Assembly: GCA_963775315.1 (NCBI GenBank)
Contig: CAVZIN010000003.1
Coordinates: 72,011 to 136,010, forward strand
DNA length: 64,000 bases
Direction of reading: 5' to 3'
Origin: an uncultured Alphaproteobacteria bacterium
Lineage (GTDB): Bacteria > Pseudomonadota > Alphaproteobacteria > MPNO01 > DASWLB01
This document shows, piece after piece, positions 1,122-63,489 of this stretch. A program made the translations under genes and the position numbers. Positions within the stretch are counted from its first letter, which is position 1; every line of letters starts with the position of its first letter. The notes below the pieces were generated by a model. That model searched no databases. It saw nothing but the letters and a program-made list of their open reading frames with translations, and was not told the origin of the DNA.

Positions 1122-1123
1122 TG

Positions 1124-1137
1124 ATGAATGTCCTTCA
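1124..1137. promoter_or_regulatory. Candidate LysR T-N11-A box (TGAATGTCCTTCA, TGAA-N5-TTCA dyad) abutting the LysR start codon, in the LysR/efflux divergent region
   Basis: Dyad read directly in the sequence. LysR regulators classically autoregulate through T-N11-A sites in the divergent promoter. Confidence 0.3.
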
Positions 1138-1585: not shown

Positions 1586-2719
1586 ATGACCTTGGCCTTC
1601 GCGGCGGCGCTCGTTGCAGGCGGTCCCCGGTTGGCCGAGGCCGCGGATGCTCCTCCGCCCGGCGTCGTGGTGGCGCCCGTCGTGGTGAAGGACGTCGCAC
1701 CGGCCACGCACTATATCGGCCATGTGCTCGCGATTCAGTCGGTGAAGCTCGTGCCACGGGTCACCGCGTATATCGACGAGGTCGCCGTGAAGCAGGGCAG
1801 CGCGGTGAAAGCCGGTCAGGTTCTGTTCCGGCTGCAGAGTACCTCCTACGAGGCAGCGCTCCAGAGCGCACAGGCCAGCTTGCAATCCGCTCGGGCGGCC
1901 TACCAGAACGCGCAGCTGGCCTACCAGCGGGCTCTGCGGCTCGGTAAAACCGGGGCGGCCGCGCAAGCGACCGTCGATCAAGCCCTGGCGACGCGAAATC
2001 AGGACCAGGCCGCGATCCTGTCGGCCCAGGCCGATGTCACCCAGGCCCAGCTGAACCTCAGCTACTGCACCATCACCGCGCCCATTGCCGGCCGTATCGG
2101 AACCGCGACCCTCACCAGGGGCAATCTCGTCACGCCGAACACCGCGGCGCTGACAACCATCAACCAGCTCGATCCGATCCGCGTGGTATTCTCGGTCAGC
2201 GACGCCGATATCGTGGATGCCGAGCAGAAGAGCGTAGAAGCGCAGAATGGCGATCTGCAAGGGTTGAAGGCGAGCCTCACGCTGCCGAACGGCAAACCCT
2301 ACGACCAAGCCGGCAGCATCGCCTTCTTCGACAACCAGGTCGATACCCAGACCGGCACGGTGAGCGTCTACGCCGACTTTGCCAATCCGCACCATCTTCT
2401 GCTGCCGGGCTCGTACGTATCGGTGCAATTGCGCAGGGCCAAGCCCCAACTGGTGCCGCTTGTCCCGGTGGCTGCGGTGCAGACGGACCAGCACGGTTCG
2501 TTCGTTCTGACGGTGGGTCGCGACAACAAGGTCAAGCAGCAGCCGGTGAAGCTCGGTCACCAGATCGCCCAGAACGACGTCGTGGAGAGCGGCCTGCGCG
2601 ACGGCGACCGCGTCATCGTCGACGGGCTTCAGAAGGTCAAGCCAGGCGAGGTGGTCAAGCCGACGACCGCGCCCTCCACGGCGGCCGCTGCCGGCCCACC
2701 GCCCGTCCAGGTCGACTGA
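1586..2719 (+). CDS. RND efflux membrane fusion protein (periplasmic adaptor, AcrA/MexA/MdtA family)
   Basis: Signal-peptide-like start 'MTLAFAAALVAGGPRLAEA', coiled-coil Q/A-rich hairpin segment, then lipoyl/beta-barrel motifs ('YCTITAPIAGRIG', 'GSYVSVQL'). The track ORF starts at an upstream ATG at 1493, which is an alternative start. Confidence 0.85.
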   Translation: MTLAFAAALVAGGPRLAEAADAPPPGVVVAPVVVKDVAPATHYIGHVLAIQSVKLVPRVTAYIDEVAVKQGSAVKAGQVLFRLQSTSYEAALQSAQASLQSARAAYQNAQLAYQRALRLGKTGAAAQATVDQALATRNQDQAAILSAQADVTQAQLNLSYCTITAPIAGRIGTATLTRGNLVTPNTAALTTINQLDPIRVVFSVSDADIVDAEQKSVEAQNGDLQGLKASLTLPNGKPYDQAGSIAFFDNQVDTQTGTVSVYADFANPHHLLLPGSYVSVQLRRAKPQLVPLVPVAAVQTDQHGSFVLTVGRDNKVKQQPVKLGHQIAQNDVVESGLRDGDRVIVDGLQKVKPGEVVKPTTAPSTAAAAGPPPVQVD

Positions 2720-2781
2720 GGCCTTTTCGTCTTGCTCTCCAGCTTTTCATCAATCGGCCCAAGTTCGCCATCGTCATCGCG

Positions 2782-5700
2782 GTGGTGATCACGCTGGCCG
2801 GGCTGCTCGCGCTCAATTCCATCCCGATTTCGCAATATCCGAACGTCACGCCGCCGAAGGTGACGATCCTGGTCAACTATCCGGGCGCCAGCGCCCAGAC
2901 GATGATCAACGAGATCGCCGAGCCCATCGAGGAGCAGGTCAACGGCGTCCCCAACATGCTGTACATGCAGAGCACCAGCTCGGGGACGGGGCATTATAAT
3001 CTGTCGGTGACTTTCGCCCTGGGCTCCGATCCCAATATCGACCAGGTCAACGTTCAGAACCGGGTTCAGGAGGCCGTAGCGCAGCTTCCGTCCGAAGTGC
3101 AGCAGGAGGGCATCGCGGTTCGCGCCGCGGCGGATACCTTCGTGCTGGCGGTGAACCTCTATTCGCCTGACAAGAAATACGACCAGCTCTTCATCTCGAA
3201 CTATGCCTACATGCATCTGCAGCAGCAGATCGCCCGCGTGGCGGGTGTCGGCGACACGCATATTTTCGGCGCGCGCGAGTACGCCATGCGGGTCTGGCTC
3301 AACCCCGCCAAGATGACTGCCCTCGGCGTGACCGTCGGCGACGTGACTTCGGCCATCCAGGCGCAGAACATCCAGGTGGCGTCCGGTCAGATCGGCGAGC
3401 CGCCGGTCAGCGGGAACCAGGCCCAGCAGCTCTCCGTGCTCGCCCCTGGAGAGTTGAGCGACCCCAAGCAGTTCAGTGACATCATTATCCGCACCAACAC
3501 CAATGGCGGGGTTCTTCGGCTCGGCGACGTCGCCAAGGTCGAGCTCGCGGCCCAGCAATACGCCAACTCTTCGGCACTGGACGGCCTGCCCTCGTCGACG
3601 GTGGTCATCTATCAGGCGCCGGGCGCCAACGCTCTTGCGGTTTCCGATAGCGTTGCGCGGCAGATGAAGGTGCTGTCGGCGCACTTCCCGCCCGGCTTGA
3701 AGTACCAGATCGTGTACAACGCCACGAACTTCGTGCGCGCCGACATCGCCGAGATCATGCGCACGCTCGTCATCACGCTTTTGCTGGTGGTCGCCGTCGT
3801 CTACGTCTTCCTGCAGGACTGGCGCGCGACGCTGATTCCGACCATCGCCATCCCCGTTTCGCTGATCGGCGTGTTCGCGGCCCTCTACGTGCTCGGCTAC
3901 TCTGCGAATACGATCGATCTTTTCGCCGTCGTCCTCGCTATCACGCTGGTCGTCGACGATGCCATCGTAGTGGTCGAGAACGTCTCCCGGCATCTGGAGG
4001 AAAACCCGGATGTGGACAGGCGGGAGGCTACCGGCGCGGCGATGCGCGAGATCACCGGCCCGGTTGTAGCGACCACCCTGATCCTCGTGGCGGTGTTCGC
4101 GCCGGTCGGTTTCATCGCCGGCATAACGGGCTCGCTATACCGGCAGTTCGCCGTCACCATCTCGGTGTCGGTGGTGATCTCCGCGATCAACGCACTGACT
4201 CTGAGCCCGGCGCTATGCGCCCTGATGCTGCGGCCGCCCTCGGGCCGCCGGATGCGCCTGTTCCGCTGGTTCAACGGGGGCTTCGAATTCACGCGTAACC
4301 GCTACACGAAAGTCGTCGGGGTCCTGTCACGAAGGCTTATCGTCACCACGATCGGCATGATGGCGGTGTTCGGCGCCACCTACTTCGTTTTCGAAGGGAC
4401 GCCAACGGCCTTCCTGCCGGCAGAGGACCAAGGATTCTTCATGCTCAACGTCCAGCTTCCCGACGGTGCGTCGCTGGGGCGGACGAGCAGCGTGGTGGAC
4501 CGGGTCGCCTCCATGCTGCGCAAGCAGCCGAGCATCGCGCACACCCTGGAAATCACGGGCTTCAGCGTTGTCTCCGGATCCCAGGAGTCGAATGGCGCCC
4601 TCGTCATCGCCATCATGAAGCCGTGGGACGAGCGGGGCGCCGACGAGTCCGTGCCCGCCGTGATACGCGCAATGAAACCGAAGCTGGACGCCATCCCCTC
4701 CGCCGATATCGTGGGGTTCAATCCGCCGGCCATTCCTGGCATCAGCACGACCGGCGGGATCAATTTCGTGTTGGAGGCGCAAAGCGGTCAGGCCTACAGC
4801 AAGCTTGCCTCGGTGGCGCGCAGCCTGATCTTTGCGGCGAACCAGAACGACGATTTGTCCTCCGTGTTCACCGCCTTTTCGGCCAACCAGCCGCAAGTGA
4901 TGGTCCACGTCAACAAGCTGAAGGCAGAGATGCTGGGCGTCAGCCCGCAGACGATCTACGAGACGCTGCAAGCCAACCTCGGCGACCAGTTCGTTAACAA
5001 TTTCAACTATCAGAATTTCGTGTTCCAGGTTCTCGTGCAGGCACAGTCGCAGTTCAGGTCCAAGGTGAGCGACATCGAAAGGCTCTATGTGCGCAGCTCC
5101 AACGGATCGATGGTGCCGCTGAAAGGGCTGATCAATGTCAGCATGATCCAGGGTGCCAACGCCCTGACGCTTTACAACTTGTTCCCGGCCGTGCTGATCA
5201 ACGGCGCCGCCGCCCAGGGCCGCAGCGACGGCCAGGCCATCAACGCGATGGAGCAGGTGGCGGCGAAACACCTGCCGCAAGGCTATGGCTACGAGTGGAC
5301 CGGCATGACCTATCAGCAAATCCAGGCCACAGGCCAGGAAGGGGCTGCCTTCCTCGCCGCAGTGGTATTTTCGTATCTCTTCCTCGCCGCCCTCTACGAA
5401 AGCTGGACCCTGCCGCTGTCGGTCATCCTGCCTGTGGCGTTCGCGATGTTCGGCGGCCTGGTGGCCCTGTACCTGCGTGGGATGGCGCTCGACATCTATG
5501 GACAGGTCGGCCTGGTCCTGCTGATCGGCCTTGCCGCGAAAAATGCCATCCTGATCGTCGAGTTCGCCAAGGACCGCCTCGAGCGGGGCGGCGTGGACGC
5601 CGTCGAGGCCGCCGAGGACGGCGCCCACACCCGTTATCGCCCCGTAATGATGACGGCGCTGGCCTTCATCATTGGCGTTGTGCCTCTCGTCATCGCCACA

Positions 5701-5886
5701 GGGGCGGGTGCCGGCGCGCGACAGTCGATCGGCACCACGGTGTTCGGCGGCATGATCATCGCAAGCTTCATCGGCGTGCTGTTCATCCCGGCGCTGTTCG
5801 TCGGGTTTCGGCACCTGTCAGAGGCCTCCTCGCGCCTGCTGGGCCGCCTTGGGGGACATCGCCACGGGCCGGATGCCGCCGAATAG
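2782..5886 (+). CDS. RND multidrug efflux permease (HAE1 family, AcrB/MexB/MdtC-like)
   Basis: 1034-aa 12-TM RND protein. The conserved N-terminal motif continues in frame upstream of the first canonical start ('...QLFINRPKFAIVIAVVITLAGLLALNSIPISQYPNV' is encoded from ~2740). The coordinates here use the first GTG, so the true start is probably upstream and non-canonical, or the sequence has an error (see findings). Confidence 0.9.
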   Translation: MVITLAGLLALNSIPISQYPNVTPPKVTILVNYPGASAQTMINEIAEPIEEQVNGVPNMLYMQSTSSGTGHYNLSVTFALGSDPNIDQVNVQNRVQEAVAQLPSEVQQEGIAVRAAADTFVLAVNLYSPDKKYDQLFISNYAYMHLQQQIARVAGVGDTHIFGAREYAMRVWLNPAKMTALGVTVGDVTSAIQAQNIQVASGQIGEPPVSGNQAQQLSVLAPGELSDPKQFSDIIIRTNTNGGVLRLGDVAKVELAAQQYANSSALDGLPSSTVVIYQAPGANALAVSDSVARQMKVLSAHFPPGLKYQIVYNATNFVRADIAEIMRTLVITLLLVVAVVYVFLQDWRATLIPTIAIPVSLIGVFAALYVLGYSANTIDLFAVVLAITLVVDDAIVVVENVSRHLEENPDVDRREATGAAMREITGPVVATTLILVAVFAPVGFIAGITGSLYRQFAVTISVSVVISAINALTLSPALCALMLRPPSGRRMRLFRWFNGGFEFTRNRYTKVVGVLSRRLIVTTIGMMAVFGATYFVFEGTPTAFLPAEDQGFFMLNVQLPDGASLGRTSSVVDRVASMLRKQPSIAHTLEITGFSVVSGSQESNGALVIAIMKPWDERGADESVPAVIRAMKPKLDAIPSADIVGFNPPAIPGISTTGGINFVLEAQSGQAYSKLASVARSLIFAANQNDDLSSVFTAFSANQPQVMVHVNKLKAEMLGVSPQTIYETLQANLGDQFVNNFNYQNFVFQVLVQAQSQFRSKVSDIERLYVRSSNGSMVPLKGLINVSMIQGANALTLYNLFPAVLINGAAAQGRSDGQAINAMEQVAAKHLPQGYGYEWTGMTYQQIQATGQEGAAFLAAVVFSYLFLAALYESWTLPLSVILPVAFAMFGGLVALYLRGMALDIYGQVGLVLLIGLAAKNAILIVEFAKDRLERGGVDAVEAAEDGAHTRYRPVMMTALAFIIGVVPLVIATGAGAGARQSIGTTVFGGMIIASFIGVLFIPALFVGFRHLSEASSRLLGRLGGHRHGPDAAE

Positions 5887-6361
5887 TCCGCGTTGAGCGC
5901 TGGGGGGCCGACGGACACCGGAACTGCCGTCGTTGAGCCATAGTTAGCGAAATGCGGGGGCATGATCGCGGGAGAGGGTGCGTGGCGTTCGGGTCGGGGC
6001 GCGCCCCGAAGCGGAAGTGCCCATGCGCGTCGGTCTCGCCGCTGAAGCCGTCACCGGGACCAAGGCATGAACGCCACGGCGGTGTTCTTCCGCGCGCTGG
6101 CCCGGTCGGAGGAAGCGAGCCAGCCGGCCGCGCTTGCCGCCACGTGGCGGAACTCGGGCGAAGTGGCGACGCCAGCGGCGCTTGTCTGCATCGAGCAGAT
6201 CGAACACGCACTCGATCGTCTAAGCGCGGAACCGTGAGGCGCCGCTTTCGTCGCCGGACCGGTGACGATCACCTTGACCATGGCAACCCGACCATTCTTC
6301 CAGGGGGTCAGTGGCCCGCCGTGCCGGCGCCACGCCCCTTGGCCGCCTTCCTGCCCGATCT

Positions 6362-6399
6362 CGATTAAAGAAATGGTGCGGCTGTGCGCTTGCGCACAG
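6362..6399 (-). terminator. Candidate rho-independent terminator on the minus strand (8-bp GC stem CTGTGCGC/GCGCACAG followed by AUUUCUUUAAU) downstream of the ATP-grasp gene
   Basis: Perfect palindrome at 6382-6399 with a U-rich tract at 6362-6372 on the minus strand. On the plus strand it is not followed by a T-tract. Confidence 0.35.
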
Positions 6400-6452
6400 A
6401 GGGCGGCGCGTCTTCGCGCCATGATCGGGTGTTTCCTCCCTTAAGCGAACTC

Positions 6453-6527
6453 GCGGTGCGGACTCCTTGGGGCCGCACCGCTTCTTTTTGCCGCGATGGC
6501 GCCCGGTCGATGTCACCCGATGTGGCT
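6453..6527 (-). repeat. Conserved intergenic element, copy 1 (hairpin CGGTGCGG-loop-CCGCACCG, then ...GCCGCGATGGCGCCCGGTCGATGTCACCCGATG)
   Basis: About 85% identical over ~70 nt to 9588..9657, in the same orientation. It contains an 8-bp stem whose loop carries AAGGAG. Confidence 0.6.
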
Positions 6528-6634
6528 TCTCGCGCAACGGGCAATCGAGTTCCGCCTATCCACTCGGCGGCGAAGCCATCCTCAAAGCTGTCCGAAAAAT
6601 ACCTTTTTCGGCAGTCTGGAGCTTCTCGCGCTCC

Positions 6635-7897
6635 TCAGTTGGTCGCTCGGCCGACAACCCGGTGTTGAACATGGCGTTGCAGCATGTTCCCGAACGCGCG
6701 AAAGATCGTGTCCATGTGTTGCCGCTTGTAAGGGAAGATCTCCGGCGGATCCAGATCGTGGACAACCATGGCGTTTCCGGCCTCGAAGACGAGAAGCCGG
6801 CCGTCTGGCATTTCGGCGCAGTCGACCGCGAAGTAGTCCAGGCGAACGCGTTCGGCAATGGCGTCGATGGCGGCTTTGTGCCGGACGGCGAAGCCGAGAT
6901 CGAACTCGGCCATGAACTTCGCCTCTTCCGCCCGTCGCTCGGCGCGAGTGAGCATCCCGGCATTGACGTAGTGGATCATCCAATCTGACGAAATCGCCAT
7001 GTGACACGGATAGGCTTGTCCATCGATAAACACGATCCGGAATTTCCGGAACAACCCATCTCGGCTTCGGTAATCGATGAACGGCGATATATAAAATTCG
7101 TCTTCAGACCTTTGCGTCAGGAAGGCAGCCACTTCCGCCGCGTCTTCGATTTTCGAGAGGCCTTCCCCGGCGTGCGAATCTCTGGGGCGCCCAATGAGGG
7201 GAAATGCGGCCCCGTCGAGGATCGAGCCAGGCAAGATTTCCCCGCGAGCGATCCGTGACAGCGTCGCGCGTCCGATACTCGCCGTCGGCGGGATCGTTAC
7301 GCCGGGCGCCTTTGCGAGCAGTACGGACACGGCGTCCCGGGTCAATCCGACGATGCGGTTTGGTGCATTGAGGACCGGGCGCTCCCAGCCCGCCAGTCTC
7401 GGCGTCAGCGCCCGCAGGACCCGTTCGTTGTTCTTGGATTCGGCGATCGTGACGAAGGCGAGGTCATGGTCCGGAAGGCGCGGCGGAAGCGGCGCGTCCT
7501 CCGTCACGTAGGCGATATGGAGCGACACGTCGAGATCGTCGAGCAGGAGCTCCAAGGGCGTGTTCGCCATGAAACTGCCAGGTACCATGAATGCCAGGAG
7601 TCGGAGGCCTTGGCGCTCGGCAGTCCGTGAGGGATGGCGGTATACGCGGCTGAGCTTCAGTGCCTCCCGCTGCAAATCGGCGCGGAGCGAGCCCTTGTCG
7701 CAAATCTGTGCGATCGTCGAGAGATCGATAAGGCAAGCCCCATCGGCCGGGTTCCGATCCCGCTGCTCGGCCAGCGACTTCCATACCGGCACCAGATCGG
7801 CTCCCGCATATGCCATTCCGAGGAGGGCCGAAAATCCGTAGGACAGCGCCGGAAAGGCGTCGGTGGACCGGTTCGGGAAAACGCTCCGCTTACTCAT
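6635..7897 (-). CDS. ATP-grasp domain protein (RimK / glutathione-synthetase-like ligase)
   Basis: C-terminal ATP-grasp signature 'FIDYRSRDGLFRKFRIVFIDGQAYPCHMAISSDWMIHYVNAG...LLVFEAGNAMVVHD'. It sits 12 nt downstream of the decarboxylase stop with an AAGG SD, so the two are co-transcribed. Confidence 0.75.
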   Translation of the reverse strand: MSKRSVFPNRSTDAFPALSYGFSALLGMAYAGADLVPVWKSLAEQRDRNPADGACLIDLSTIAQICDKGSLRADLQREALKLSRVYRHPSRTAERQGLRLLAFMVPGSFMANTPLELLLDDLDVSLHIAYVTEDAPLPPRLPDHDLAFVTIAESKNNERVLRALTPRLAGWERPVLNAPNRIVGLTRDAVSVLLAKAPGVTIPPTASIGRATLSRIARGEILPGSILDGAAFPLIGRPRDSHAGEGLSKIEDAAEVAAFLTQRSEDEFYISPFIDYRSRDGLFRKFRIVFIDGQAYPCHMAISSDWMIHYVNAGMLTRAERRAEEAKFMAEFDLGFAVRHKAAIDAIAERVRLDYFAVDCAEMPDGRLLVFEAGNAMVVHDLDPPEIFPYKRQHMDTIFRAFGNMLQRHVQHRVVGRATN

Positions 7898-12158: not shown

Positions 12159-13240
12159 GCCTCCGCGGGGCTCGCGGCCCGGCAGGAAAGCAGCAGCGTC
12201 TCGAGCTCCGCGGCGCGGCAGGCGGCGGTGTGCTCGGCCATTACGCGCCGCCGCGCCGAGTTCGCGATGGCGTTGCGCGTCGTGTCGGGCGTGTCGCGCA
12301 GGATCGCCACCGCCTCGTCGGTGTCGCGCGCGATCAAAATGTCGCGCCCGGGCGTGAAGAACTGATCGATCCCGTCCCACCGGTCGCTGACGATCGGCAC
12401 GCCGCACGCGGCCGCCTCGAACAGCCGCACGCTCGGCGACCAGCCGGCTTCGGTCATCGCTTTCCGCGTGATGTTCAGGGTGAAGCGCTGGGCCGAGTAG
12501 AAGGCGCGGTGCGCGCCGGGCGCGACGTGCTCGATCCGCTCGACGTTCGCCGGCCACTGGATGTCGGCCGGGTATTGCGGGCCGCCGACGACGAAGCGCG
12601 CGTCGGCCATCTCGCCCGCCGGGCCGAGCAGCAGCGCGTCGAGACCCGGCTGGCGGTCGTCGCTGTAGGTACCGAGATAGCCGAGCAGCCAGCGGCGATC
12701 GACGCGCTCCGGGTAATGCAGCTCGGGATCGACGGCGCAGTAGAGCGCCGCAGCGCGCCTGGCGCCGAACCTTCGCTCGATGCGGGCGAGCATCGGACCG
12801 CCGGTGAAGGAGAGGTAGAGATCGAAGCGCGGCACCAGCGCGCGAGAGAGATAGGCGCAGTCGCCGGTCTCCAGCGCCGCCACCGTGATCGGCGTGTCGA
12901 TATCGTAGAATGCGGTTGCCCCGCGCGTCGTATCGCACACCCAGCCCGCCACTGCGATCCCGTCCGGCACGTAGGAGCCGACGATCACCGCGGCCGCCTC
13001 GCGCACCAAGGCCGAGAATCGGTCGCGAAGCTCCTCGGTCGAGCCGTAGAGGTGCGTTCGCCCATAGGGCGGGTCGGGCAGGTCGCGGTTCGCTGCGTAC
13101 CATTCGACATCGCGCTCGAGGAACGTCACCTCGTGGCCGCGCCGGACAAGCTCGCGCACCAGCCCGCGATAGGTGGTCGCGTGCCCGTTGCCCCAGGACG
13201 AGGTGATCGAGAGCCCGCAGATGACGATGCCGAGACTCAT
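12155..13240 (-). CDS. CgeB-like glycosyltransferase (DUF3880 / Glyco_trans_1_2 type), paralog C
   Basis: 'MSLGIVICGLSITSSWGNGHATTYRGLVREL...' N-terminal motif and a C-terminal GT-B half ('FEAAACGVPIVSD'). 361 aa. Its ATG overlaps the upstream stop (ATGA). Confidence 0.85.
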   Translation of the reverse strand: MSLGIVICGLSITSSWGNGHATTYRGLVRELVRRGHEVTFLERDVEWYAANRDLPDPPYGRTHLYGSTEELRDRFSALVREAAAVIVGSYVPDGIAVAGWVCDTTRGATAFYDIDTPITVAALETGDCAYLSRALVPRFDLYLSFTGGPMLARIERRFGARRAAALYCAVDPELHYPERVDRRWLLGYLGTYSDDRQPGLDALLLGPAGEMADARFVVGGPQYPADIQWPANVERIEHVAPGAHRAFYSAQRFTLNITRKAMTEAGWSPSVRLFEAAACGVPIVSDRWDGIDQFFTPGRDILIARDTDEAVAILRDTPDTTRNAIANSARRRVMAEHTAACRAAELETLLLSCRAASPAEA

Positions 13241-14322
13241 TCGGCCGCCGATATTTCGGCCTGGCCGTAGAGCAGCGCCTCGACCAGCGCCGCGCGCTGC
13301 GCATAGGTGTGGTGGGCGAGGACGCGGGCGCGGGCCGCGCGGCCGATCTCGGCGGCGGCCTGCATGGTGGTGCGGCCCAGATGCGCGGCGACGTCGGCGC
13401 CGTGGGCGGCGACCAAAATCTCGCGTCCCGGCTCGAGGAACGTCTCGATCCCCTCCCACGCGTCGGAGATCAGGCAGGCGCCGGCGCCCGCCGCCTCGAA
13501 CACGCGCGTCGCGGGCGAGAAGCCGAACCGGGCCATCAACTCGCGGCTGATGTTGAGGACGCAGCGCGCCGAGCAGTTGATGACGTTGTGGTCGCGGGTG
13601 AAGACGTGGCCGATGGCGCGTACGTTGGGTGGCACCTCGGCGCCCGGCCAGCCGTTCCCGCCCAGAAGAATGCGGTCCTCCGGTCGGCGGCGCGCCGCTT
13701 CGAACAGGAACGCGTCGACCCTCGCCTCGCGATCGGGCAGCCTGTTGCCGACGAAGGCGAGGTCGGCGGCGAAGCTTACCGACGGCGGAACCGGATGGTG
13801 CGTTTCTGGATCGACGGCGTTGTAGATCGGCGTGCAGGCGCGCGCGCCGAGCGCCCGATAGGCGCGGCATACCGGCTCGCCGCCGCCATAGGTCAGCACC
13901 CGGTCGAAGCGCGGGATCAACGAGCGCAGCCGGTCGTTCGGATCCGCCGCGATGGATTCCAGCGTCGCCGGCGCATCGACGTCCCAGAAGATGGCGGCCC
14001 GGTGCGGGACGCGTAGCGCGACCACCGCTGCCTCCAGCTCGGCGTCGAGCACGCCGACACCCGATGCCTTCACCACCACGTCCGCCGATGTCGCCTCGTC
14101 GAGCGCGCGTTCCATCCCGTCCGCGGTCGGCGCGTAGACCACGACGCGCGCCCAATCCGGGTCGGGCATGTCGCGATGGGCCTGACGTTCGAACGCGTCG
14201 GGCTCGTAGAACGCGATCTCGTGTCCGCGCGTGGCCAGCGCCTTCAGAAGGCCGCGATAGTAGGTGGCGGCGCCGTTCCAGTAAGCGGAGACGAGGCTCG
14301 ATCCGAAGAACGCAATCCGCAT
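13237..14322 (-). CDS. CgeB-like glycosyltransferase, paralog B
   Basis: 'MRIAFFGSSLVSAYWNGAATYYRGLLKAL...FEAAGAGACLISD'. 361 aa, with an ATGA overlap to the upstream gene. Confidence 0.85.
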   Translation of the reverse strand: MRIAFFGSSLVSAYWNGAATYYRGLLKALATRGHEIAFYEPDAFERQAHRDMPDPDWARVVVYAPTADGMERALDEATSADVVVKASGVGVLDAELEAAVVALRVPHRAAIFWDVDAPATLESIAADPNDRLRSLIPRFDRVLTYGGGEPVCRAYRALGARACTPIYNAVDPETHHPVPPSVSFAADLAFVGNRLPDREARVDAFLFEAARRRPEDRILLGGNGWPGAEVPPNVRAIGHVFTRDHNVINCSARCVLNISRELMARFGFSPATRVFEAAGAGACLISDAWEGIETFLEPGREILVAAHGADVAAHLGRTTMQAAAEIGRAARARVLAHHTYAQRAALVEALLYGQAEISAAE

Positions 14323-53619: not shown

Positions 53620-53630
53620 CCGGCCGGGCC

Positions 53631-53903
53631 ATGGCCGATCTGCCGCCGCTTCGGTTTACCGTGCATGCGCGCACGGCGTTGGGCGAGCGCCGTATTCCGG
53701 AGGAGTGGGTTCGGCGCGTGCTCGACCGGCCGGAGTGGGCCGAGCCGGACCCGAGCTGGGCTGGCAACACGCTCGCCTTCGGGCGAGTTCCGGAATTCGG
53801 AAACCGGCTTCTTCGTGTAGTATATCGGGATGCTGCGGGTGAGCGCCGCGTGATCACGGCCTTTTTCGACCGCACCCGCGCAAGGCAGGGACGCGCGCCA
53901 TGA
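53631..53903 (+). CDS. DUF4258-family putative toxin
   Basis: 'FTVHARTALGERRIPEEWVRRVL...LRVVYRDAAGERRVITAFF' is the DUF4258 pattern. Confidence 0.65.
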   Translation: MADLPPLRFTVHARTALGERRIPEEWVRRVLDRPEWAEPDPSWAGNTLAFGRVPEFGNRLLRVVYRDAAGERRVITAFFDRTRARQGRAP

Positions 53904-54100
53904 GAGTCCGCTTCGATCGCGAGGAAGACGCGCTATACATCCGCCTCGACGATTCGCCCGTCGTCGAGTCCGAGGAGGTGCGCCCTGGTGTGGTCTTCGA
54001 CTATGACGCCCAGAACCGGGTCGTCGGCATCGAGGTGCTCAACGCCCAGGAGCGCCTCCCGACCGCGAAACTCGGCCAGGTCGATTTCGAAGTGGCATAG
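53900..54100 (+). CDS. DUF2283-family putative antitoxin
   Basis: 'MRVRFDREEDALYIRLDDSPVVESEEVRPGVVFDYDAQNRVVGIEVL'. ATGA overlap with the preceding gene. Confidence 0.75.
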   Translation: MRVRFDREEDALYIRLDDSPVVESEEVRPGVVFDYDAQNRVVGIEVLNAQERLPTAKLGQVDFEVA

Positions 54101-54700: not shown

Positions 54701-55110
54701 ACGCCTCGGACGCCGCGACATGGGCCCCGGCTCGGCGCGCTCCGCTCGCCGTCCGGGGTGACAAGCGGACATTGGGCGCCAGCCGACCCACGCACTGCTT
54801 TGGCCTGCATCCATCGAGAGTGCAGCCGCCGCAAGACGCGCGGGACCATGCTTACGATGCACTAAAAACAGCGACGCGTTAAATGTTGAGATGATGGAGA
54901 ACGCTCTTTTCCAAATCAGAGATATCTGATTTCGTCTTTTGAATTATCGAATTTATGCAAGACCCGCAGTATAGGGGTCGAGCGGTAAACCCGCTTTTCA
55001 TTCTCGGAATCTGAAAACACCGTTCACCCGTAATTATCTTCTTATCACAACGGTCGCACGTTGTGGCTCGTCCGCAAGTATGAGGAGCAGGAAAACCGGC
55101 AATTATCCGG

Positions 55111-55139
55111 TTGACGTACCAAGCCCCATCCCCTATATT
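55111..55139 (+). promoter_or_regulatory. Near-consensus sigma-70 promoter (TTGACG-17 nt-TATATT) preceded by dyad AACCGGcaattatCCGGTT
   Basis: Read directly; it lies inside a low-GC (~45-50%) segment. Confidence 0.4.
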
Positions 55140-55165
55140 CCCTTCAAGACGAAGGGAACACGGTT

Positions 55166-55411
55166 ATGGCCAAGCTTGATCTGACAAACCCGATCTTCCA
55201 CGACGACGCCAATGGGCCGCCTATCGTTGCCTCTTCCGACAAGACGCCCCGCTTTCTCCAAAAGCACTTTTGTCAATTCGTCACATCAAGAGACTCGAAT
55301 AGGCCTTCCTTAATAGTAAGATTTGGGGCGACAATGAGCACACGACCGTGCGCTATTCCAAATGGCGCGATGGCTGCGAGACCAGATTTTCCGCATCCCA
55401 CAGGGATCTGA
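55166..55411 (+). CDS. Small ORF of unknown function (81 aa) driven by the consensus promoter, antisense to the helicase fragment
   Basis: GAAGGGAA lies 7 nt upstream of the ATG. No homology recognised, so this could be non-coding. Confidence 0.25.
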   Translation: MAKLDLTNPIFHDDANGPPIVASSDKTPRFLQKHFCQFVTSRDSNRPSLIVRFGATMSTRPCAIPNGAMAARPDFPHPTGI

Positions 55412-55704
55412 ACGATGGCAGCATGATTTCCCTTCTTAAAGAACTCGTATAATGCTTGATATGCCTCAATCTGCGGCTCCCGCAATTGGAGGTTTTCCTC
55501 GATGTGCGCAGGTGTCTTTATAAAAAAATTTTCGATAGGAATATTGGAACGGACCCATGCATCAAGGTCCTTCTTGCTGAACAGCCATTTGCTGCCGACC
55601 TTGTTGGAGGGGATGCTGCCGTCCCGCGCCAAATCGTACAGGGCGGTTTTGCCCATCTGGAGGTATTTCGCCGTCTCTTCGATCGACATCCACTCTTCGG
55701 ACAT
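55273..55704 (-). pseudogene. Truncated remnant: excisionase-type HTH fused to the N-terminal fragment of a ResIII/DEAD-like helicase (Walker A 'PVGCGKSG'), in a low-GC island
   Basis: 'MSIEETAKYLQMGKTALYDLARDGSIPSNKVGSKWLF' (excisionase/MerR-like HTH), then 'QIEAYQALYEFFKKGNHAAIVQIPVGCGKSGLAAIAPF'. The ORF stops after ~100 helicase residues and has no continuation in any frame. Confidence 0.6.
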
Positions 55705-55869
55705 GGCCCGCTCTCCCGTTTATCAAATTCTATCATCTGACATCATATGATGCAAGCAGCCGTCCGCCCAGTTGGCCTCGACCCGAAGAACCTGTCGTCT
55801 CGAGTTGGCCACCGGCACCCCCCACCCCGCATTGACGCCCCCGCCTTATGCCCCTAACATCCCCTGGCG

Positions 55870-58598: not shown

Positions 58599-59720
58599 TT
58601 ACGCCGGGGTGTAGTGGGCGAGCGACTCGTCGATTTTGCGCGTGTCGGCCGCGTCGGTGTCGCCGAAATCGATCGTGTCGCAGCGGAACGGCTCGTTGTC
58701 GGGATCGAGCGGGCGGAGCTTCGGCGCCACCTCCTCCATGAACAGGCTCATCGACCGGTCGCGCTTCTCAGGCGTGGCGTAGTCGCGCCCGGCGTGGAAC
58801 ATCAACAGGCCGAACCCGCCGGTGACGTCGTAGAACTCGCGGATGCGCTGGTACACCGTGTCGGGCGAGCCGATGAACAGGTTCTTCGTCTCGATCAGAT
58901 AGTCGTAGGTGATGTCTTCCAGCGTGCCGCCCGGCGGGATGCGCTCGACCTGGTGGTGGGGGGTGTTCTTGATCTCCCACTTGATGGTCTGGGTGTAGGA
59001 TTCGCGCATGTCCTCGACCGCCTGCTTGTCGGTCTCGGCGACGTAGATCACCCGGGTCGTGCTCATCGGGTTGCGCGACGGCGTCTTGCCGGCGGCGCGC
59101 TGCGCCTCGACCAGCGCGTTGCCGAATTTCTGCAGCCGCGGGATCGGGATGAAATCGCCGGTCAGCACCTGGTAGCCGCGCTGCGCGGCGAGCTCGATGG
59201 TCGACACCGAGTTGGCCGCCGCCACCGCGACCGGCGGGTGCGGCTTCTGCACGCAATCGGGCTTCACGAACATCTGCTTGCCCTTCCAGAAGGGCCCGTC
59301 ATAGTCGATCGGCTCGTCCGCGGCCCAGAGCCGCTCGATCAAATCGATCGAGGCGTGCATCATCTGGCGGGTCTTGGAGAAATCGAGCCCGCGCCGCTCC
59401 ATGTGCGCGGCGTAGAACCCGAACCCGATGCCGAGCCGGTAGCGCCCGCCGGTGAGCTGGTCGCAGGCGTTCGCCTCGATCGCCACCTGCATCGGGTGGT
59501 GATAGGCGAGCGGGCGCACGGCCGAGCCCAGCGTGATGTTCCTGGTGACCGCCGCGGCCTTGCAGATGATGAGCTCGGCCGGCGAGTCGTGCTCGCTGAT
59601 CCAGGCCTCGTCCATGCCCAGCCGGTCGGCCGTCTCGATCTCGTGGATGTCGAGGTCCCACTGCACGCCGGTCGACGGCTGGTTGGGACGGCGGCTGTTG
59701 GAAAAGAGGCCGAATCTCAT
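58599..59720 (-). CDS. LLM-class (luciferase-like) flavin-dependent oxidoreductase
   Basis: 'MRFGLFSN...', TIM-barrel LLM motifs. ATG at 59720 with a GGAGGA SD. The track extension upstream is unlikely to be real. Confidence 0.85.
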   Translation of the reverse strand: MRFGLFSNSRRPNQPSTGVQWDLDIHEIETADRLGMDEAWISEHDSPAELIICKAAAVTRNITLGSAVRPLAYHHPMQVAIEANACDQLTGGRYRLGIGFGFYAAHMERRGLDFSKTRQMMHASIDLIERLWAADEPIDYDGPFWKGKQMFVKPDCVQKPHPPVAVAAANSVSTIELAAQRGYQVLTGDFIPIPRLQKFGNALVEAQRAAGKTPSRNPMSTTRVIYVAETDKQAVEDMRESYTQTIKWEIKNTPHHQVERIPPGGTLEDITYDYLIETKNLFIGSPDTVYQRIREFYDVTGGFGLLMFHAGRDYATPEKRDRSMSLFMEEVAPKLRPLDPDNEPFRCDTIDFGDTDAADTRKIDESLAHYTPA

Positions 59721-60199
59721 GCGCGTTCCTCCGCACTTGGCCGCCGTACCGGCGGCCCTGCCACATCGTTGGTCGGTCGAGGATACAACCATCGCGTGGG
59801 GGACGAAAGGCTGGCGGCCGCGCCGGCCGGGCCGATGGGCGACCGTCGCGCCCGCGTCGCCCGAACGCCGCCTCGATCAGGCCCCATGTCGCCGCCATGT
59901 CTCCTCGAAGTCTCCTCGATGTCGCCTATGTCTCCCCGCAAACGCTTGACCGGAAACGAACGTCGCCTCGGGCGGGCCGAAAATCCGATCTGCGACATCC
60001 CGACCGACCGCGCCGCGTCCGTTTCCATGGTCGCGGCCCTCGGGGGCCGACCGCGACGACGCGATCCGCTGCCGCCAACGCCGCGCGTCTTCTATAGGAT
60101 TTTCCTCCTCGTGTCAAGCGAGCTTTCGGCGCATCAAGCGCGGAAAAGGGTTGCCCCGATTCAGTCGCCAGGGGAACTTGGGGCCCAAAAGGGGATCGA

Positions 60200-62863
60200 G
60201 TGTTGGCTGCAACGGTGACCCTGCCCGAGATCGTTTCCCGATTCGGCGCATCGGCGAAAGCCAAATTGTCGAACAAGGCGGTCAGCGGGGCTCCCGAGGA
60301 TCAGCTTCGGGCCCCGATGGAGGAACTCATCGCCGGCTTCGCCGTGCTCGCCGGCCAGCCGGCGGGCGCCGTCGTGGCGGTGGGAGAATCCTCCTTGTCC
60401 GATATCAAGACGCGCCCCGACTACGCCATCACCCTGCACAACGCCTTGATCGGATTCATCGAGCTCAAGGCGCCAGGGAAAGGCGCGGACCCGCGGAAAT
60501 TTCATGACCCGCACGACCGGGAGCAATGGGACAAGCTCAAGTCGCTGCCGAACCTGATCTACACGGACGGGAACGCCTTCAGCCTCTGGCGAGACGGCAA
60601 GCTGGAAGGATCGATCCTACGATTCGAGGGCGATATCGAAACAGCCGGAGCCTCGCTCGCGGCAACATCGGCGTTGACCGCGCTATTCGGAACGTTCTTC
60701 CAATGGCAACCCATCCCTCCCCGAAACGCCCCGCAATTGGCGGAGGTCAGCGCGCGCCTCTGCCGATTGTTGCGGGACGAGGTATCGGAGCAACTGGCGC
60801 TTGGAAGCAAATCCCTCACCAGCCTGGCGCAAGACTGGCGAAAACTCCTGTTTCCGCAGGCTTCCGATGCGGTGTTCGCCGATGGCTACGCGCAGGCGGT
60901 AACGTTCGGCTTGCTGATGGCACGAGCGCAGGGAATTTCGCTCGCCGAGGGGCTGGACCATGTCGCGCGCGACCTGCAAAAGACGAACTCGCTCATCGGC
61001 ACCGCCCTCAAAGTTCTCACCGATCAAGCGGAGAACCAGGCGACGTTGAAGACCTCGCTGGCCACGCTTACGCGTGTCTTGGATGTGGTGGATTGGGCGA
61101 AGGTGAGCAAGGGCGACCCGGAGGCTTGGCTCTATTTTTACGAGCGCTTCCTGAGCGTCTATGACAACGACCTCCGCAAGAAGACGGGCTCGTACTACAC
61201 GCCACCCGAAATCGTCAACGCCATGGTCCGTATGGTGGACGACCTGCTTCGCGACCCCAACCGCTTCGGGCTGACGGGCGGACTGGCTTCTCCTGACGTT
61301 ACGCTCGCCGATCCCGCGATGGGGACAAGGGTCTTTCAAGGGGTGCAGCAGCCGGTTTGCATCGTGATCGCGTCTCGCATGGCCGACACGGACCCTGAAA
61401 CTCCGGCGCGGGTTCGGTTTCACTCGCTTCCGAACGGTCGGCGCGAGGAAAAGTTCGAGGCGATTTCCAAGCTGTCGGTGGGCGGTGCGGCCTGGACGGA
61501 CTGCCCCGCCGAATGGCGCGCTCCCTTCCTGCCGGCGCCGGTAGGTGCGTGGGCGTCCTTCCCCAGCCTGGAGGATTTGTTCGTCTATGACGGGTCGGGC
61601 GTCATGCCGGGCCGGACCTGGGTGATCGCACCTGACGCAGCGTCCCTGCGCGACCGATGGGATCGATTGGTGCACGAGAGGGATCCCGAGGTGAAGGAGA
61701 ACTTGTTCCATCCACACATTGTTGGCGGGCAACCGGCGGATAAGCATTCACGGAAGGCTGCTAAATCCGGCCTGTCCGGACACGAATACCGGGCACCTTC
61801 CGTTGCGAACGATCGAGGCCCAATCGTAAATCCCACGAGGTATGGCTTCCGTTCGTTTGACCGACAATGGGTAATTCCAGACAATAGGCTGCTTAACCGA
61901 TCTAATCCAACACTGTGGAAAGAATACTCAGGTTCGCAGATTTATCTGACCGCGCCGCATGACAGGTCAGCGACAGCTGGTGCAGCATTGACATTCACCG
62001 AGCTCATTCCAGATTTGCACCATTACAACGGGAGGGGCGGCCGCGTGTTCCCTCTGTGGTTCGATGGCAAGGCCACGGTTTCCAATATCAAACCGGCGCT
62101 GCGGCAGGTCCTATCGGATCGATTGGCGAATCCCGTTTCCGGCGAGGATGTCTTCGCGTACGTCGCCGCAATTGCGGCCCATCCCGGTTATGTGGCGCGG
62201 TTCAAATCCGATCTGGTTCAGCCGGGCCTTCGGATTCCGATCACTTCGGACCCGAAGCTGTTCCACGAAGCGGTCCGGCTTGGGCGACAAATCGTATGGC
62301 TTCACACGTTCGGCGAGCGGTTCGTCTCCGCCGAAGAAGGTCGGCCGCCGGGCCCGCCTCGCCTGCCGGAAGGCAAAGCTCCGCGAATACCCGCAGCAGG
62401 CGCGATTCCATCGGCACCGGACAAGATGCCGAACTCGATTTCCTATGACGAGAACAAGCGGCGTCTGTTCGTCGGCGACGGCTACATCGACAATGTGGCG
62501 CCGGGCGAATGGACCTATGAGGTCTCCGGAAAGCAGGTGCTGGTACAATGGTTCAGCTACCGCCGCCGCGACCGCGAGCGGCCGATCATCGGTGATCGGC
62601 GACAGCCGTCGCCCTTGAACGACATTCAGCCGGACCACTGGGTCGCGGAATACACCACCGAGTTGATGAACGTCCTGAACGTGCTCGGTCGATTGGTGGA
62701 GCTCGAGCCGGCGCTGGCGGACCTGCTCGACCGGATTTGCAAAGGGCCGCTCCTGTCCGCCGACAGCCTTCGGGCCGAAGGCGCCTTCGACGTTCCGGCG
62801 GATTTCGGAAGCCAACTTTTGTCCAAATCGACGGACGAGCGTCAAGGCGAGCTTCTGGAATAG
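60200..62863 (+). CDS. MmeI/type-ISP-like restriction-modification family protein: PD-(D/E)xK nuclease-like N-terminus, N6-MTase motifs X/I (GSYYTPPEIV, DPAMGT) but no NPPY motif, type-ISP-like C-terminal specificity domain
   Basis: 'RPDYAITLHNALIGFIELKAP' (D...ExK), 'YERFLSVYDNDLRKKTGSYYTPPEIVNAMV', 'LADPAMGT', and a C-terminal 'NPTRYGFRSFDRQWVIPDN...'. The GC content is visibly lower than the surrounding sequence. Confidence 0.65.
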   Translation: MLAATVTLPEIVSRFGASAKAKLSNKAVSGAPEDQLRAPMEELIAGFAVLAGQPAGAVVAVGESSLSDIKTRPDYAITLHNALIGFIELKAPGKGADPRKFHDPHDREQWDKLKSLPNLIYTDGNAFSLWRDGKLEGSILRFEGDIETAGASLAATSALTALFGTFFQWQPIPPRNAPQLAEVSARLCRLLRDEVSEQLALGSKSLTSLAQDWRKLLFPQASDAVFADGYAQAVTFGLLMARAQGISLAEGLDHVARDLQKTNSLIGTALKVLTDQAENQATLKTSLATLTRVLDVVDWAKVSKGDPEAWLYFYERFLSVYDNDLRKKTGSYYTPPEIVNAMVRMVDDLLRDPNRFGLTGGLASPDVTLADPAMGTRVFQGVQQPVCIVIASRMADTDPETPARVRFHSLPNGRREEKFEAISKLSVGGAAWTDCPAEWRAPFLPAPVGAWASFPSLEDLFVYDGSGVMPGRTWVIAPDAASLRDRWDRLVHERDPEVKENLFHPHIVGGQPADKHSRKAAKSGLSGHEYRAPSVANDRGPIVNPTRYGFRSFDRQWVIPDNRLLNRSNPTLWKEYSGSQIYLTAPHDRSATAGAALTFTELIPDLHHYNGRGGRVFPLWFDGKATVSNIKPALRQVLSDRLANPVSGEDVFAYVAAIAAHPGYVARFKSDLVQPGLRIPITSDPKLFHEAVRLGRQIVWLHTFGERFVSAEEGRPPGPPRLPEGKAPRIPAAGAIPSAPDKMPNSISYDENKRRLFVGDGYIDNVAPGEWTYEVSGKQVLVQWFSYRRRDRERPIIGDRRQPSPLNDIQPDHWVAEYTTELMNVLNVLGRLVELEPALADLLDRICKGPLLSADSLRAEGAFDVPADFGSQLLSKSTDERQGELLE

Positions 62864-62985
62864 CCGCTCGCCGGCCTGCCGGTGGCCGCTGTCCTCGCGC
62901 CGGTGACCCCGGGCGGCCCCATCTTGGCCACTGGCCGGGGCGGCGCGCGGGGGGCACAGTCCCGGTCCGGGAGCGGGGGCTGGCC

Positions 62986-63489
62986 ATGCCGCAATTCCGC
63001 GAACTCCACGAACTCCACGATTTCCTGCGAAGGGCGCTCGCCGGCCGGCGGCGAAGGCAGCGCCTCGCCGCGGTTGCCGTGTGCGCGGTGGCGCTCGGCG
63101 GGGTCGCGATCGCGGCGACCCCCGCGCCCGACCGGCGCCCGTTCGACTGGCTCAGGATCGCCGGAAAGTGCATGGAGCGCCCGGACGGGAGCTGGGCCGG
63201 CTATCGCGGCGAGGTGGTCGCGCGCAACGCCGCGCACGGCACCGGCGTGCGCATCTACGGCAAGGTGCTGCAGAACGACCTGCCCGAGATCACGCGCGGC
63301 GCGGTCGTGACGGGCGGGACGGGCCCCTTCGCCGTGGTCTTCCCCAGTCTGCGCCCCGCCCAGGTGGCCGGCACGCGCCTCCGTCTCGAAGGGGTGAGCG
63401 AACATCTCGGGCTCGACAAGGCGGCCCAGCCGATCCGCGGCCAGGCCGTCTGCGACCTCACCGTCGTCCAGCGCCGGCCGGTGGAGTAG
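62986..63489 (+). CDS. Hypothetical secreted/membrane-anchored protein
   Basis: ATG at 62986 is preceded by GGGAGCGGGGG. It has a hydrophobic 'LAAVAVCAVALGGVAIAATPA' segment. Confidence 0.45.
   Translation: MPQFRELHELHDFLRRALAGRRRRQRLAAVAVCAVALGGVAIAATPAPDRRPFDWLRIAGKCMERPDGSWAGYRGEVVARNAAHGTGVRIYGKVLQNDLPEITRGAVVTGGTGPFAVVFPSLRPAQVAGTRLRLEGVSEHLGLDKAAQPIRGQAVCDLTVVQRRPVE

Follow-up and report, generated by a model that had tools for sequence, protein, structure and literature searches.

The window, the whole 64-kb stretch of DNA analysed here, encodes on its forward strand an 887-aa protein with full-length homology to the single-chain Type IIG/IIL restriction-modification (RM) enzymes of the DrdV-like clade (PADLOC PDLC03631). 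The reading frame at 60200-62863 is open across all 2661 nt. With the GTG codon at 60200 as the start, the N-terminus lines up with those of the homologs; the database gene call for the same sequence (P0001) begins 39 codons further in, at M40. A scan for promoters and terminators returned nothing above shuffled expectation, such a scan being uninformative in a high-GC genome. The locus comprises the following features:

60119..60199, no strand assigned: interval within which the lineage-specific (acquired) DNA begins on the left, from comparison with sister contig L007
60190..60195, + strand: Shine-Dalgarno-like AGGGGA, read from the sequence, 4 nt upstream of the GTG start
60200..62863, + strand: whole ORF (887 aa plus stop, GTG start), a DrdV-like Type IIG/IIL restriction-modification gene with an internal in-frame deletion
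60200..60709, + strand: N-terminal PD-(D/E)xK endonuclease domain, residues ~1-170
60419-60421, 60461-60463 and 60467-60469, + strand: nuclease catalytic residues D74, E88 and K90, respectively
60710..61186, + strand: helical connector, residues ~171-329
61187..61216, + strand: methyltransferase motif X, GSYYTPPEIV, kept (residues 330-339)
61298..61324, + strand: truncated motif I strand VTLADPAMG (residues 367-375), with the G-x-G-T/F continuation gone
61322..61330, + strand: deletion junction ggg|aca|agg (G375-T376-R377), where ~720 nt (240 codons) are gone
61325..61573, + strand: C-terminal remnant of the methyltransferase domain, residues 376-458, from TRVFQGVQQPVCIV on
61574..62671, + strand: complete target-recognition domain (TRD) of the Type_ISP_C kind, Pfam PF18135, residues 459-824

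The domains follow one another in the order nuclease, connector, methyltransferase and TRD, and no motor is present. The nuclease motif PDYAITLHNALIGFIELK occupies residues 73-90, and D74, E88 and K90 are invariant in both a 10-sequence and a 65-sequence alignment of the family. The nuclease part is ~70-72% identical to the homologs. The connector aligns without gaps to intact homologs and has its counterpart in the helical connector of DrdV (bioRxiv 10.1101/2021.01.06.425610). Motif X aligns to G302-V311 of DrdV, including F304, which contacts the flipped adenine in that enzyme (bioRxiv 10.1101/2021.01.06.425610). The Type_ISP_C domain is matched with E = 7e-73 over profile positions 1-341 of 342. 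An AF2 model is confident over the nuclease (residues 1-170, with an alpha/beta fold) and the TRD, and places helices in the connector at residues 177-329 with pLDDT mostly 78-90, while the methyltransferase remnant is modelled with low to moderate confidence (pLDDT 41-79) and the junction residues 370-383 fall below 50.

When aligned with 9 or with 119 intact homologs, the latter ~1110-1125 aa long, the protein shows one seamless in-frame gap with a median length of 240 aa between G375 and R377. The protein reads DPAMGT at residues 371-376, where homologs have DPAxGTGT[FY]L; the remnant from residue 376 on aligns with the homolog columns past CSPEGHQP, and R377-V378-F379 are the counterparts of N560-V561-F562 of DrdV. 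T376 is assignable to either side of the gap and was placed differently by two MAFFT alignments. At the nucleotide level relatives have GGG ACA GGN ACN at the left breakpoint and ACN CGN GTC TTT at the right, and there is no repeat tract at the junction. A Thr codon available on either side would imply a microhomology of 3-5 nt at the junction.

The profile searches agree with this placement. The N6_Mtase match covers residues 313-375 only, corresponding to profile positions 9-56 of 311, and lies exactly at the cut-off, whereas in intact homologs used as controls it extends over positions 9-138. The PADLOC model REase_MTase_IIG (PDLC03631) is matched with E = 1.2e-304 in two stretches that flank the missing profile segment. 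Motif IV is absent, with no [NDS]PP[YFWH] anywhere in the 887-aa protein. The gamma-class N6-adenine methyltransferase is accordingly incomplete, motif X being present, motif I cut after DPAMG and motif IV missing. The deleted segment corresponds to residues ~344-558 of the methyltransferase domain of DrdV (295-635) and contains the equivalents of N448 and Y451 (NPPY), N458, K486, K488 and Y396, as well as the motif I G-x-G and the AdoMet pocket. In DrdV, these six residues serve to keep the flipped adenine in place, occupy the space left vacant, read bases or touch the partner subunit (bioRxiv 10.1101/2021.01.06.425610).

The features that the first-pass annotation had read from this gene were all confirmed by these searches, namely the PD-(D/E)xK nuclease-like N-terminus, the gamma-class motif X/I region, the type-ISP-like C-terminal specificity domain, the lack of an NPP[YFW] motif IV, for which the alignments disclosed no overlooked intact copy, and the absence of a helicase. 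The unusually short segment that it had noted between motif I and the C-terminal domain proved to be a real, single gap relative to intact homologs. Its assignment to MmeI- or type-ISP-like RM proteins held for the single-chain architecture, which lacks a motor, but the nearest characterised relative is DrdV (Type IIL), and of the profiles it had proposed for the search PF18135 was matched in full and N6_Mtase in part, while the MmeI_* models were not matched.

The family is large, with 5525 homologs at E <= 1e-10, the best of which are 56-67% identical. Even towards the closest, at ~67%, synonymous sites are saturated. DrdV is the top PDB match both by sequence profile (E = 2.7e-27) and by full-length fold (Foldseek E = 2.4e-18). 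It shares with the window protein the N-terminal PD-(D/E)xK nuclease, helical connector, gamma-class N6A methyltransferase and C-terminal TRD in the same order, and is a solitary gene like the intact relatives of the window protein. However, identity in the structural alignment is merely ~13-14%, DrdV residues ~344-558 are without counterpart in the window protein, and intact members of the clade are ~90 residues longer than DrdV. Cleavage by DrdV requires several target-bound protomers whose nuclease domains act in trans (bioRxiv 10.1101/2021.01.06.425610). The MmeI family (Type IIL/IIG; PDB 5HR4) likewise combines a D...ExK nuclease, motifs in the gamma order X-I-IV and a TRD in a single polypeptide; MmeI methylates one strand, and its cleavage requires AdoMet and Mg2+ (PMC2582602). 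The TRD of the window protein is, in contrast, of the Type_ISP_C kind, none of the Pfam MmeI_* models matches the protein at E <= 1, and MmeI is absent among its sequence-profile and fold matches. The intact homolog P0009 has an MmeI_Mtase match below threshold (E = 0.056, 13 bits against a cut-off of 27), and the other intact homologs have none.

The Type ISP enzymes LlaGI and LlaBIII (PDB 5FFJ, 4XQK) have homologous methyltransferase and TRD modules and the Pfam Type_ISP_C domain in common with the window protein, and are matched with E = 1e-19 to 1e-25 by sequence profile and ~1e-10 by Foldseek, the alignment with LlaBIII being confined to its methyltransferase-TRD part (residues 846-1201). 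Unlike the window protein and its intact homologs, these enzymes of 1400-1600 aa carry an ATP-dependent helicase-like motor between nuclease and methyltransferase; Pfam, NCBIfam and PADLOC searches of the window protein detected neither a helicase nor a ResIII/DEAD domain. A relationship to the BREX methyltransferase PglX (BrxX) was not indicated, as no PglX model is among the PADLOC matches. None of the BREX genes brxA/B/C, pglZ and brxL is found among the window neighbours. The window protein possesses an N-terminal nuclease, which PglX is not known to have. A match to the NCBIfam model MADS2 (E = 0.047, 12 bits against a cut-off of 720) was discarded, because it reflects the common motif X only.

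The truncated form is unique in the family. In 204 members that span the junction, 192-269 aa separate its two sides, and no spacer falls below 150 aa, as against 0 in the window protein. These members include 83 of the best 150 representatives obtained when 1.84 billion cluster representatives were searched exhaustively. Apart from P0001, which is the same sequence, the database has no short entry. Several proteins 850-930 aa long that matched in two stretches were considered as recurrent forms without a methyltransferase, but all of them keep GNPPY (GNPPH in P0171) and are merely truncated at an end, with which their spacers agree.

The missing segment was not found elsewhere in the 64-kb window by tblastn with 119 equivalents of the deleted segment (best E = 0.065, noise), and a split or relocated gene was rejected for this stretch. 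The window also contains no second copy of the gene and no paralog or orphan methyltransferase. Another low-GC stretch (~600-7000), considered as a possible source of a partner methyltransferase, consists of a LysR regulator and an RND efflux operon. The partner gene in trans that the first-pass annotation had suggested looking for thus did not materialise within the window. In all three contexts examined the intact relatives are solitary among housekeeping genes, as expected of a self-contained enzyme that needs no separate methyltransferase or specificity gene. The neighbours of the window gene are thiC, a glyoxalase-family gene, a luciferase-like monooxygenase and a PLP enzyme; the flanking monooxygenase has Stellaceae-labelled matches at ~71% identity, a loose pointer to Alphaproteobacteria.

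The composition of the gene sets it apart from these neighbours. Its GC content is 0.617 and its GC3 0.735, as compared with a GC3 of 0.935-0.969 in the thiC, glyoxalase-family, monooxygenase and PLP-enzyme genes. The gene-sized segment beginning at 60201 has the lowest GC of the 64 kb, and 0.2% of such segments are equally low. Collinearity with the sister contig L007, at ~89% nucleotide identity, extends through thiC, the glyoxalase-family gene and the monooxygenase, with weak similarity continuing to about position 60118 of the window; beyond this point nothing in L007 resembles the RM gene. The possibility that L007 has a clean empty site was considered and rejected: homology ends ~80 nt before the start of the RM gene, but the remaining 627 bp match neither this gene nor its downstream flank, and the tblastx matches there are compositional noise, so that L007 shows absence of the gene only and not a two-flanked insertion. 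The low GC3 relative to the neighbours and the absence of the gene from the sister contig together support horizontal acquisition of the RM gene, as the first-pass annotation had proposed from the lower local GC content.

The remainder of the gene shows no sign of accelerated decay. At 321 alignment columns that are at least 95% conserved it has 5 mismatches, as compared with 4.1 +/- 2.9 in intact homologs, and 41 of the 119 homologs have at least 5. Since the 647 retained residues show no excess loss at conserved positions, either the deletion would be very recent or the remainder would still be constrained by purifying selection; the two fit the alignment equally well. Decayed copies occur elsewhere in the family: one (L002) is split by an IS630-like element, and another member (P0141) is frameshifted. 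Decay is common in the DrdV-like family, and the window gene together with these two copies fits rapid turnover after horizontal acquisition.

Taken as a whole, it is very likely that the gene is the dead remnant of a horizontally acquired, solitary DrdV-like Type IIG/IIL enzyme, which was probably inactivated recently. According to this scheme, a solitary gene for a single polypeptide composed of a PD-(D/E)xK nuclease, a connector, a gamma-class N6-adenine methyltransferase and a Type_ISP_C domain would have arrived by horizontal transfer and then suffered one in-frame deletion of ~720 nt, probably through slippage or microhomology-mediated joining at the Thr codon. The ~240 residues lost run from the G-x-G of motif I up to just before the conserved TR[IV]FQGVQ strand and comprise the Rossmann core that binds AdoMet, the catalytic NPPY loop and the methyltransferase residues that contact target DNA. 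In this class of enzymes, the methyltransferase and recognition domains form the DNA-recognition cleft jointly, and the nuclease is licensed only after specific engagement of the target. The single deletion is predicted to abolish both the site-specific m6A methylation and the fixed-distance cleavage that mark the class, because cleavage depends on this cleft and, in MmeI, needs AdoMet. With both activities lost at once, the cell would have survived the loss of its protective methylation.

The first-pass annotation had offered two readings, an internally deleted, inactive remnant or a specificity/nuclease-only derivative. The internal deletion was borne out, with exact breakpoints, and its singleton occurrence and the decayed relatives favour the inactive remnant; positive evidence for the derivative did not emerge. 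A repurposed derivative would consist of the nuclease, connector and TRD without a methyltransferase core, would be expressed and would be kept by selection; it might serve as a methylation-independent DNA binder or nuclease, or as a subunit in multimers with, or regulator of, an intact paralog elsewhere in the genome. The open reading frame, the intact D74/E88/K90, the complete TRD and the Shine-Dalgarno-like site are what such a protein would be expected to have, no relaxation is detectable at conserved positions, and a defective protomer could in principle join DrdV-type multimers, which cleave with nuclease domains in trans. We nevertheless consider this very unlikely. The allele is a singleton, with a comparable gap in 0 of 204 junction-spanning relatives, and the 64-kb window holds no paralog, orphan methyltransferase or relocated segment with which the product could act. 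Target recognition is itself unlikely to have survived, because the deletion takes the residues for base flipping and base-specific contacts, and a nuclease that was still active and sequence-specific without cognate methylation would be self-toxic. The absence of decay is explained equally well by a recent event. Were a protein without the methyltransferase domain nevertheless functional, nature would have produced a Type IIL derivative that retains DNA engagement, and it would offer a naturally occurring test of how far the licensing of the nuclease relies on the methyltransferase domain.

It is also very improbable that the gene is really intact, or intact in most cells, and that the 720-nt gap arose in assembly or stems from a minority deletion variant that entered the consensus. 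The sequence does come from one assembly, and P0001 lies on one contig and forms a cluster of one, but the junction is seamless and in frame, and the gene is situated inside a contig of 188,523 bp (P0001) with normal flanks. Assemblers collapse sequence at long repeats, whereas the possible microhomology around the missing segment amounts in relatives to no more than 3-5 nt. An ancestral or alternative architecture that never had a full methyltransferase domain can be regarded as extremely improbable. It would account for the open reading frame and nothing further, while the sequence on either side of the gap matches, position by position and at 56-72% identity, proteins that all have the domain, motif I is half kept (DPAMG) and cut in its middle, and the short form is absent from the 204 other junction-spanning members.

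The reading as a dead remnant bears on how such genes are annotated. Pipelines call this ORF a restriction/modification enzyme or a DNA methyltransferase, although it is predicted to be inactive as both; it should be left out of tallies of active defence systems and not be invoked to explain a motif in a methylome. Inactivation by internal deletion is an ordinary kind of gene decay. In a fused Type IIG/IIL enzyme, one lesion in the methyltransferase domain can abolish methylation and restriction alike, and the host is spared the post-segregational killing that protects two-gene systems. A similar case is the phase-variable Type IIG enzyme of Campylobacter jejuni NCTC11168, where one mutation inactivates the fused RM gene and the host survives because both activities reside in one polypeptide (PMC4889913). 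The lesion described here differs in being an irreversible in-frame excision of the catalytic core, as opposed to a reversible frameshift in a repeat tract.

The restriction-modification (RM) gene is a single long ORF, with an SD-like AGGGGA 4 nt upstream of its start codon. The features concerned are listed below, residues being those of the encoded protein.

58599-59792, minus strand: luciferase-like monooxygenase gene, adjoining the RM gene on one side
60200-62863, plus strand: RM gene, GTG start, 887 aa
61322-61330: deletion junction, ggg aca agg
Residues 73-90: PDYAITLHNALIGFIELK
Residues 330-339: GSYYTPPEIV
Residues 371-376: DPAMGT

A homolog database search with this protein returned 5525 matches. 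Almost all of the best 120 of these are 1100-1160 aa long and carry PF02384 and PF18135, and the one short entry among them (P0001, 848 aa, 100% identical, from one contig) is the RM gene itself, called from a later start codon. The P0001 call begins at M40 (window position 60317), and starting at the GTG at 60200 regains 39 N-terminal residues, of which L8, F15, K22, L23 and others match positions conserved in the homologs. In the public annotation the N-terminus is probably too short.

Alignments with 9, and then with 119, homologs revealed one seamless gap, at which the protein passes straight from ...VTLADPAMG to (T)RVFQGVQQPVCIV where the homologs carry a median of 240 residues, as expected from the shortened segment between motif I and the C-terminal domain described in the first-pass annotation. 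The absent segment includes GTGT[FY]LL (the rest of motif I), GNPPYK (motif IV), WRWATWKVF and CSPEGHQP. Relatives read GGG ACA GGN ACN at the left breakpoint and ACN CGN GTC TTT at the right, so that a Thr codon is common to both sides, and the simplest history would be the deletion of ~720 nt across 3-5 nt of microhomology. The in-frame outcome had a one-in-three chance and by itself carries no weight as evidence.

The motif strings quoted in the first-pass annotation were all located in the protein, and the absences that it reported were borne out: there is no [NDS]PP[YFWH] motif IV in the entire sequence, and Pfam, PADLOC and other profile searches detected no helicase domain. In the HMM search that it proposed, the Type_ISP_C recognition domain was complete (Pfam, residues 459-824, E = 7e-73), and the N6_Mtase match was a stub lying exactly at the cut-off (residues 313-375, profile positions 9-56 of 311); in three intact homologs used as a control, the N6_Mtase match covers positions 9-138 and so takes in motif IV. 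The PADLOC Type IIG model PDLC03631 was matched in two stretches (E = 1.2e-304) that leave its central part uncovered.

Among solved structures, the family profile matched DrdV (7LO5, E = 2.7e-27), LlaBIII (4XQK, E = 1.3e-25) and LlaGI (5FFJ, E = 1.2e-19). The AlphaFold model of the protein (mean pLDDT 84.3) is confident for the nuclease, connector and target-recognition domain and weak for the methyltransferase remnant (~residues 320-450), with pLDDT below 50 at junction residues 370-383; in a Foldseek search with this model, DrdV was a full-length match (E = 2.4e-18) and ranked above the Type ISP enzymes. DrdV numbering was counted through a HMMER alignment and checked against the published N448 and Y451 in NPPY. 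G375 corresponds to DrdV G343, and R377-V378-F379 to N560-V561-F562; the deletion therefore spans DrdV residues ~344-558, ~63% of the methyltransferase domain (residues 295-635). In the cryo-EM structure of DrdV, the DNA target lies in the cleft between the methyltransferase domain and the target-recognition domain, and the methyltransferase active site is the location of AdoMet (bioRxiv 10.1101/2021.01.06.425610). The segment missing here holds N448 and Y451, which grip the flipped adenine, N458, which helps to occupy the space left by it, K486 and K488, which make base-specific contacts, and Y396, which touches the partner subunit (bioRxiv 10.1101/2021.01.06.425610). The AdoMet-binding motif I loop is severed, and only the equivalents of DrdV F304 (Y332), F562 (F379) and K567 remain.

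The RM gene is by ancestry a single-chain Type IIG/IIL gene whose nearest characterised relative is DrdV. The earlier label, MmeI/type-ISP-like, holds in part: the architecture is common to this protein and MmeI, but the Pfam MmeI-specific models were not reached, and the protein, lacking a motor domain, does not belong to the Type ISP enzymes. Nor is it a BREX PglX, since it has no PglX profile match and no BREX operon surrounds the gene. A complete methyltransferase domain, one of the features that define the Type IIG/IIL family, is lacking, and the gene is therefore to be described as a defective allele, not as a working member.

The distance between two anchors either side of the junction is 192-269 aa (median 239, never below 150) in all 204 available junction-spanning family members, and 0 in this protein; the deletion is thus a singleton among them. 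When 1.84 billion cluster representatives were searched exhaustively with HMMER, 5463 matched. Some of these, 850-930 aa long, could have represented a recurring short architecture, but each keeps GNPPY or GNPPH and is cut at one end. That the protein is a natural short isoform is effectively refuted, and an assembly or population artefact, by which the gap would not belong to the gene, is quite improbable. Equivalents of the deleted segment from the 119 homologs found no match in the window (best E = 0.065), so the segment has not moved within it. As to a partner gene acting in trans, a possibility raised in the first-pass annotation, no methyltransferase was found near the RM gene, and the 64-kb window holds no second copy of it. 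On each of three long contigs examined, the intact homolog stands alone amid unrelated housekeeping genes, indicating that the family requires no partner.

The retained columns were compared with those of each of the 119 intact homologs by leave-one-out. The protein had 5 mismatches in the 321 columns conserved at 95% or more (4.1 +/- 2.9 in intact proteins, 41 of 119 of which have at least 5), and on average it is 64.4% identical to the family (61.5-71.8% in intact members); the remainder therefore carries no detectable decay. Either the deletion is very recent or the remainder is still constrained; both fit equally well, as no relative is close enough to isolate the branch that follows the deletion. 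MmeI, however, requires AdoMet as well as Mg2+ for cleavage (PMC2582602), and DrdV cuts only once several target-bound protomers assemble, its nuclease domains acting in trans on the DNA of other protomers; in the model proposed by its authors, the nuclease of the apo enzyme is sequestered until specific recognition (bioRxiv 10.1101/2021.01.06.425610). These three points shift the balance towards a dead gene and make a functional derivative devoid of the methyltransferase unlikely. With the deletion, the pockets for AdoMet and for base flipping would be lost along with some of the recognition surface, so that the protein would not engage its target and could neither methylate nor perform licensed cleavage. 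In a fused enzyme, one lesion would end both activities together and the unmethylated host genome would escape attack, which would explain the viability of the host. The single seamless gap and the mechanistic knowledge of MmeI and DrdV thus favour an internally deleted, inactive RM remnant, one of the alternatives offered in the first-pass annotation, as the best explanation and a rather probable one. A decayed RM gene will not surprise specialists; this is a tidy example, in which the catalytic core alone was cleanly excised and the nuclease and recognition domains were left intact, and the annotation of the gene needs correcting accordingly.

The clade also shows decay of other kinds. In contig L002 (CAVXTC010000009.1, MAG of an uncultured proteobacterium), the gene's closest genomic relative is split at ~residue 770 by an insertion of ~1.17 kb (12325-13499), which bears ORFs for HTH and DDE-transposase proteins in the opposite orientation and looks like an IS630-like element; here a family member was inactivated independently. 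In P0141, a 758-aa member from the representative library, the sequence from motif X to the WRWATLKVF region, across motifs I-IV, is scrambled in a way that frameshifts out of and back into the reading frame could produce; P0141 is a pseudogene or the result of a sequencing error.

The RM gene has a GC content of 0.617 and a GC3 of 0.735, compared with a GC3 of 0.935-0.969 in the adjacent monooxygenase, PLP-enzyme, thiC and glyoxalase-family genes, and the gene-sized interval at 60201 has the lowest GC of the whole 64 kb, in agreement with the lower GC noted earlier. GC is also moderately lower (~0.63) over a broad region at ~200-7000, which holds an efflux operon with no relation to the RM gene; its products are a LysR regulator, an HlyD-type membrane-fusion protein and an AcrB-family RND transporter. 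On the side away from the monooxygenase lie a small unannotated ORF and then the Cys/Met PLP enzyme; thiC and the glyoxalase-family gene lie farther upstream. The window contains no tRNA, and no integrase was found near the RM gene. A 250-aa ORF (62737-63489, plus strand, GC 0.71-0.77), which has no Pfam or PADLOC match, shares ~127 nt with the RM gene at the 3' end of the latter; more plausibly, translation begins at an internal Met (MPQFRELHEL...) and gives a shorter product that has a hydrophobic segment.

The sister-organism metagenomic contig L007 is collinear with the window up to ~60118, with ~89% identical DNA across the monooxygenase, glyoxalase-family gene and thiC, and a monooxygenase 94% identical in protein. 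The 627 bp that it carries past the common intergenic spacer do not resemble the RM gene (best E = 0.99 when an intact homolog was used in tblastn) and match nothing elsewhere in the window. This absence, together with the GC3 contrast, shows that the RM gene was acquired specifically in this lineage, as the earlier proposal of horizontal transfer had it, and the locus varies between close relatives beyond the presence or absence of this gene. A clean empty site is not definable in L007, which is too short and too diverged past ~60118. The 627-bp stretch (positions 1-627 of Ga0673031_0089737, JGI metagenome 3300081965) has a GC of 0.68 and no called gene.

A low-GC patch at ~54800-55750 (GC 0.46-0.52, ~0.70 in the flanks) contains a 143-aa ORF (55273-55704, minus strand) with an HTH_17 domain (E = 1.2e-14), after which a ResIII/DEAD helicase begins (Walker A PVGCGKSG) but breaks off at a stop after ~65 positions; the ~400 nt beyond hold no ORF longer than 47 aa. 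Its PADLOC matches are mad1 (HTH only, E = 3.7e-10) and typeIV_DinG (E = 4e-5). Lying ~4.5 kb from the RM remnant, it resembles a second such relic, of a helicase or defence gene that was acquired horizontally and has been truncated. Two adjacent small ORFs, neither with a PADLOC match, encode DUF4258 (53625-53903, plus strand, E = 9e-7) and DUF2283 (53900-54100, plus strand, E = 3e-20) proteins; the stop of the former overlaps the start of the latter, and they may form a toxin-antitoxin-like pair.
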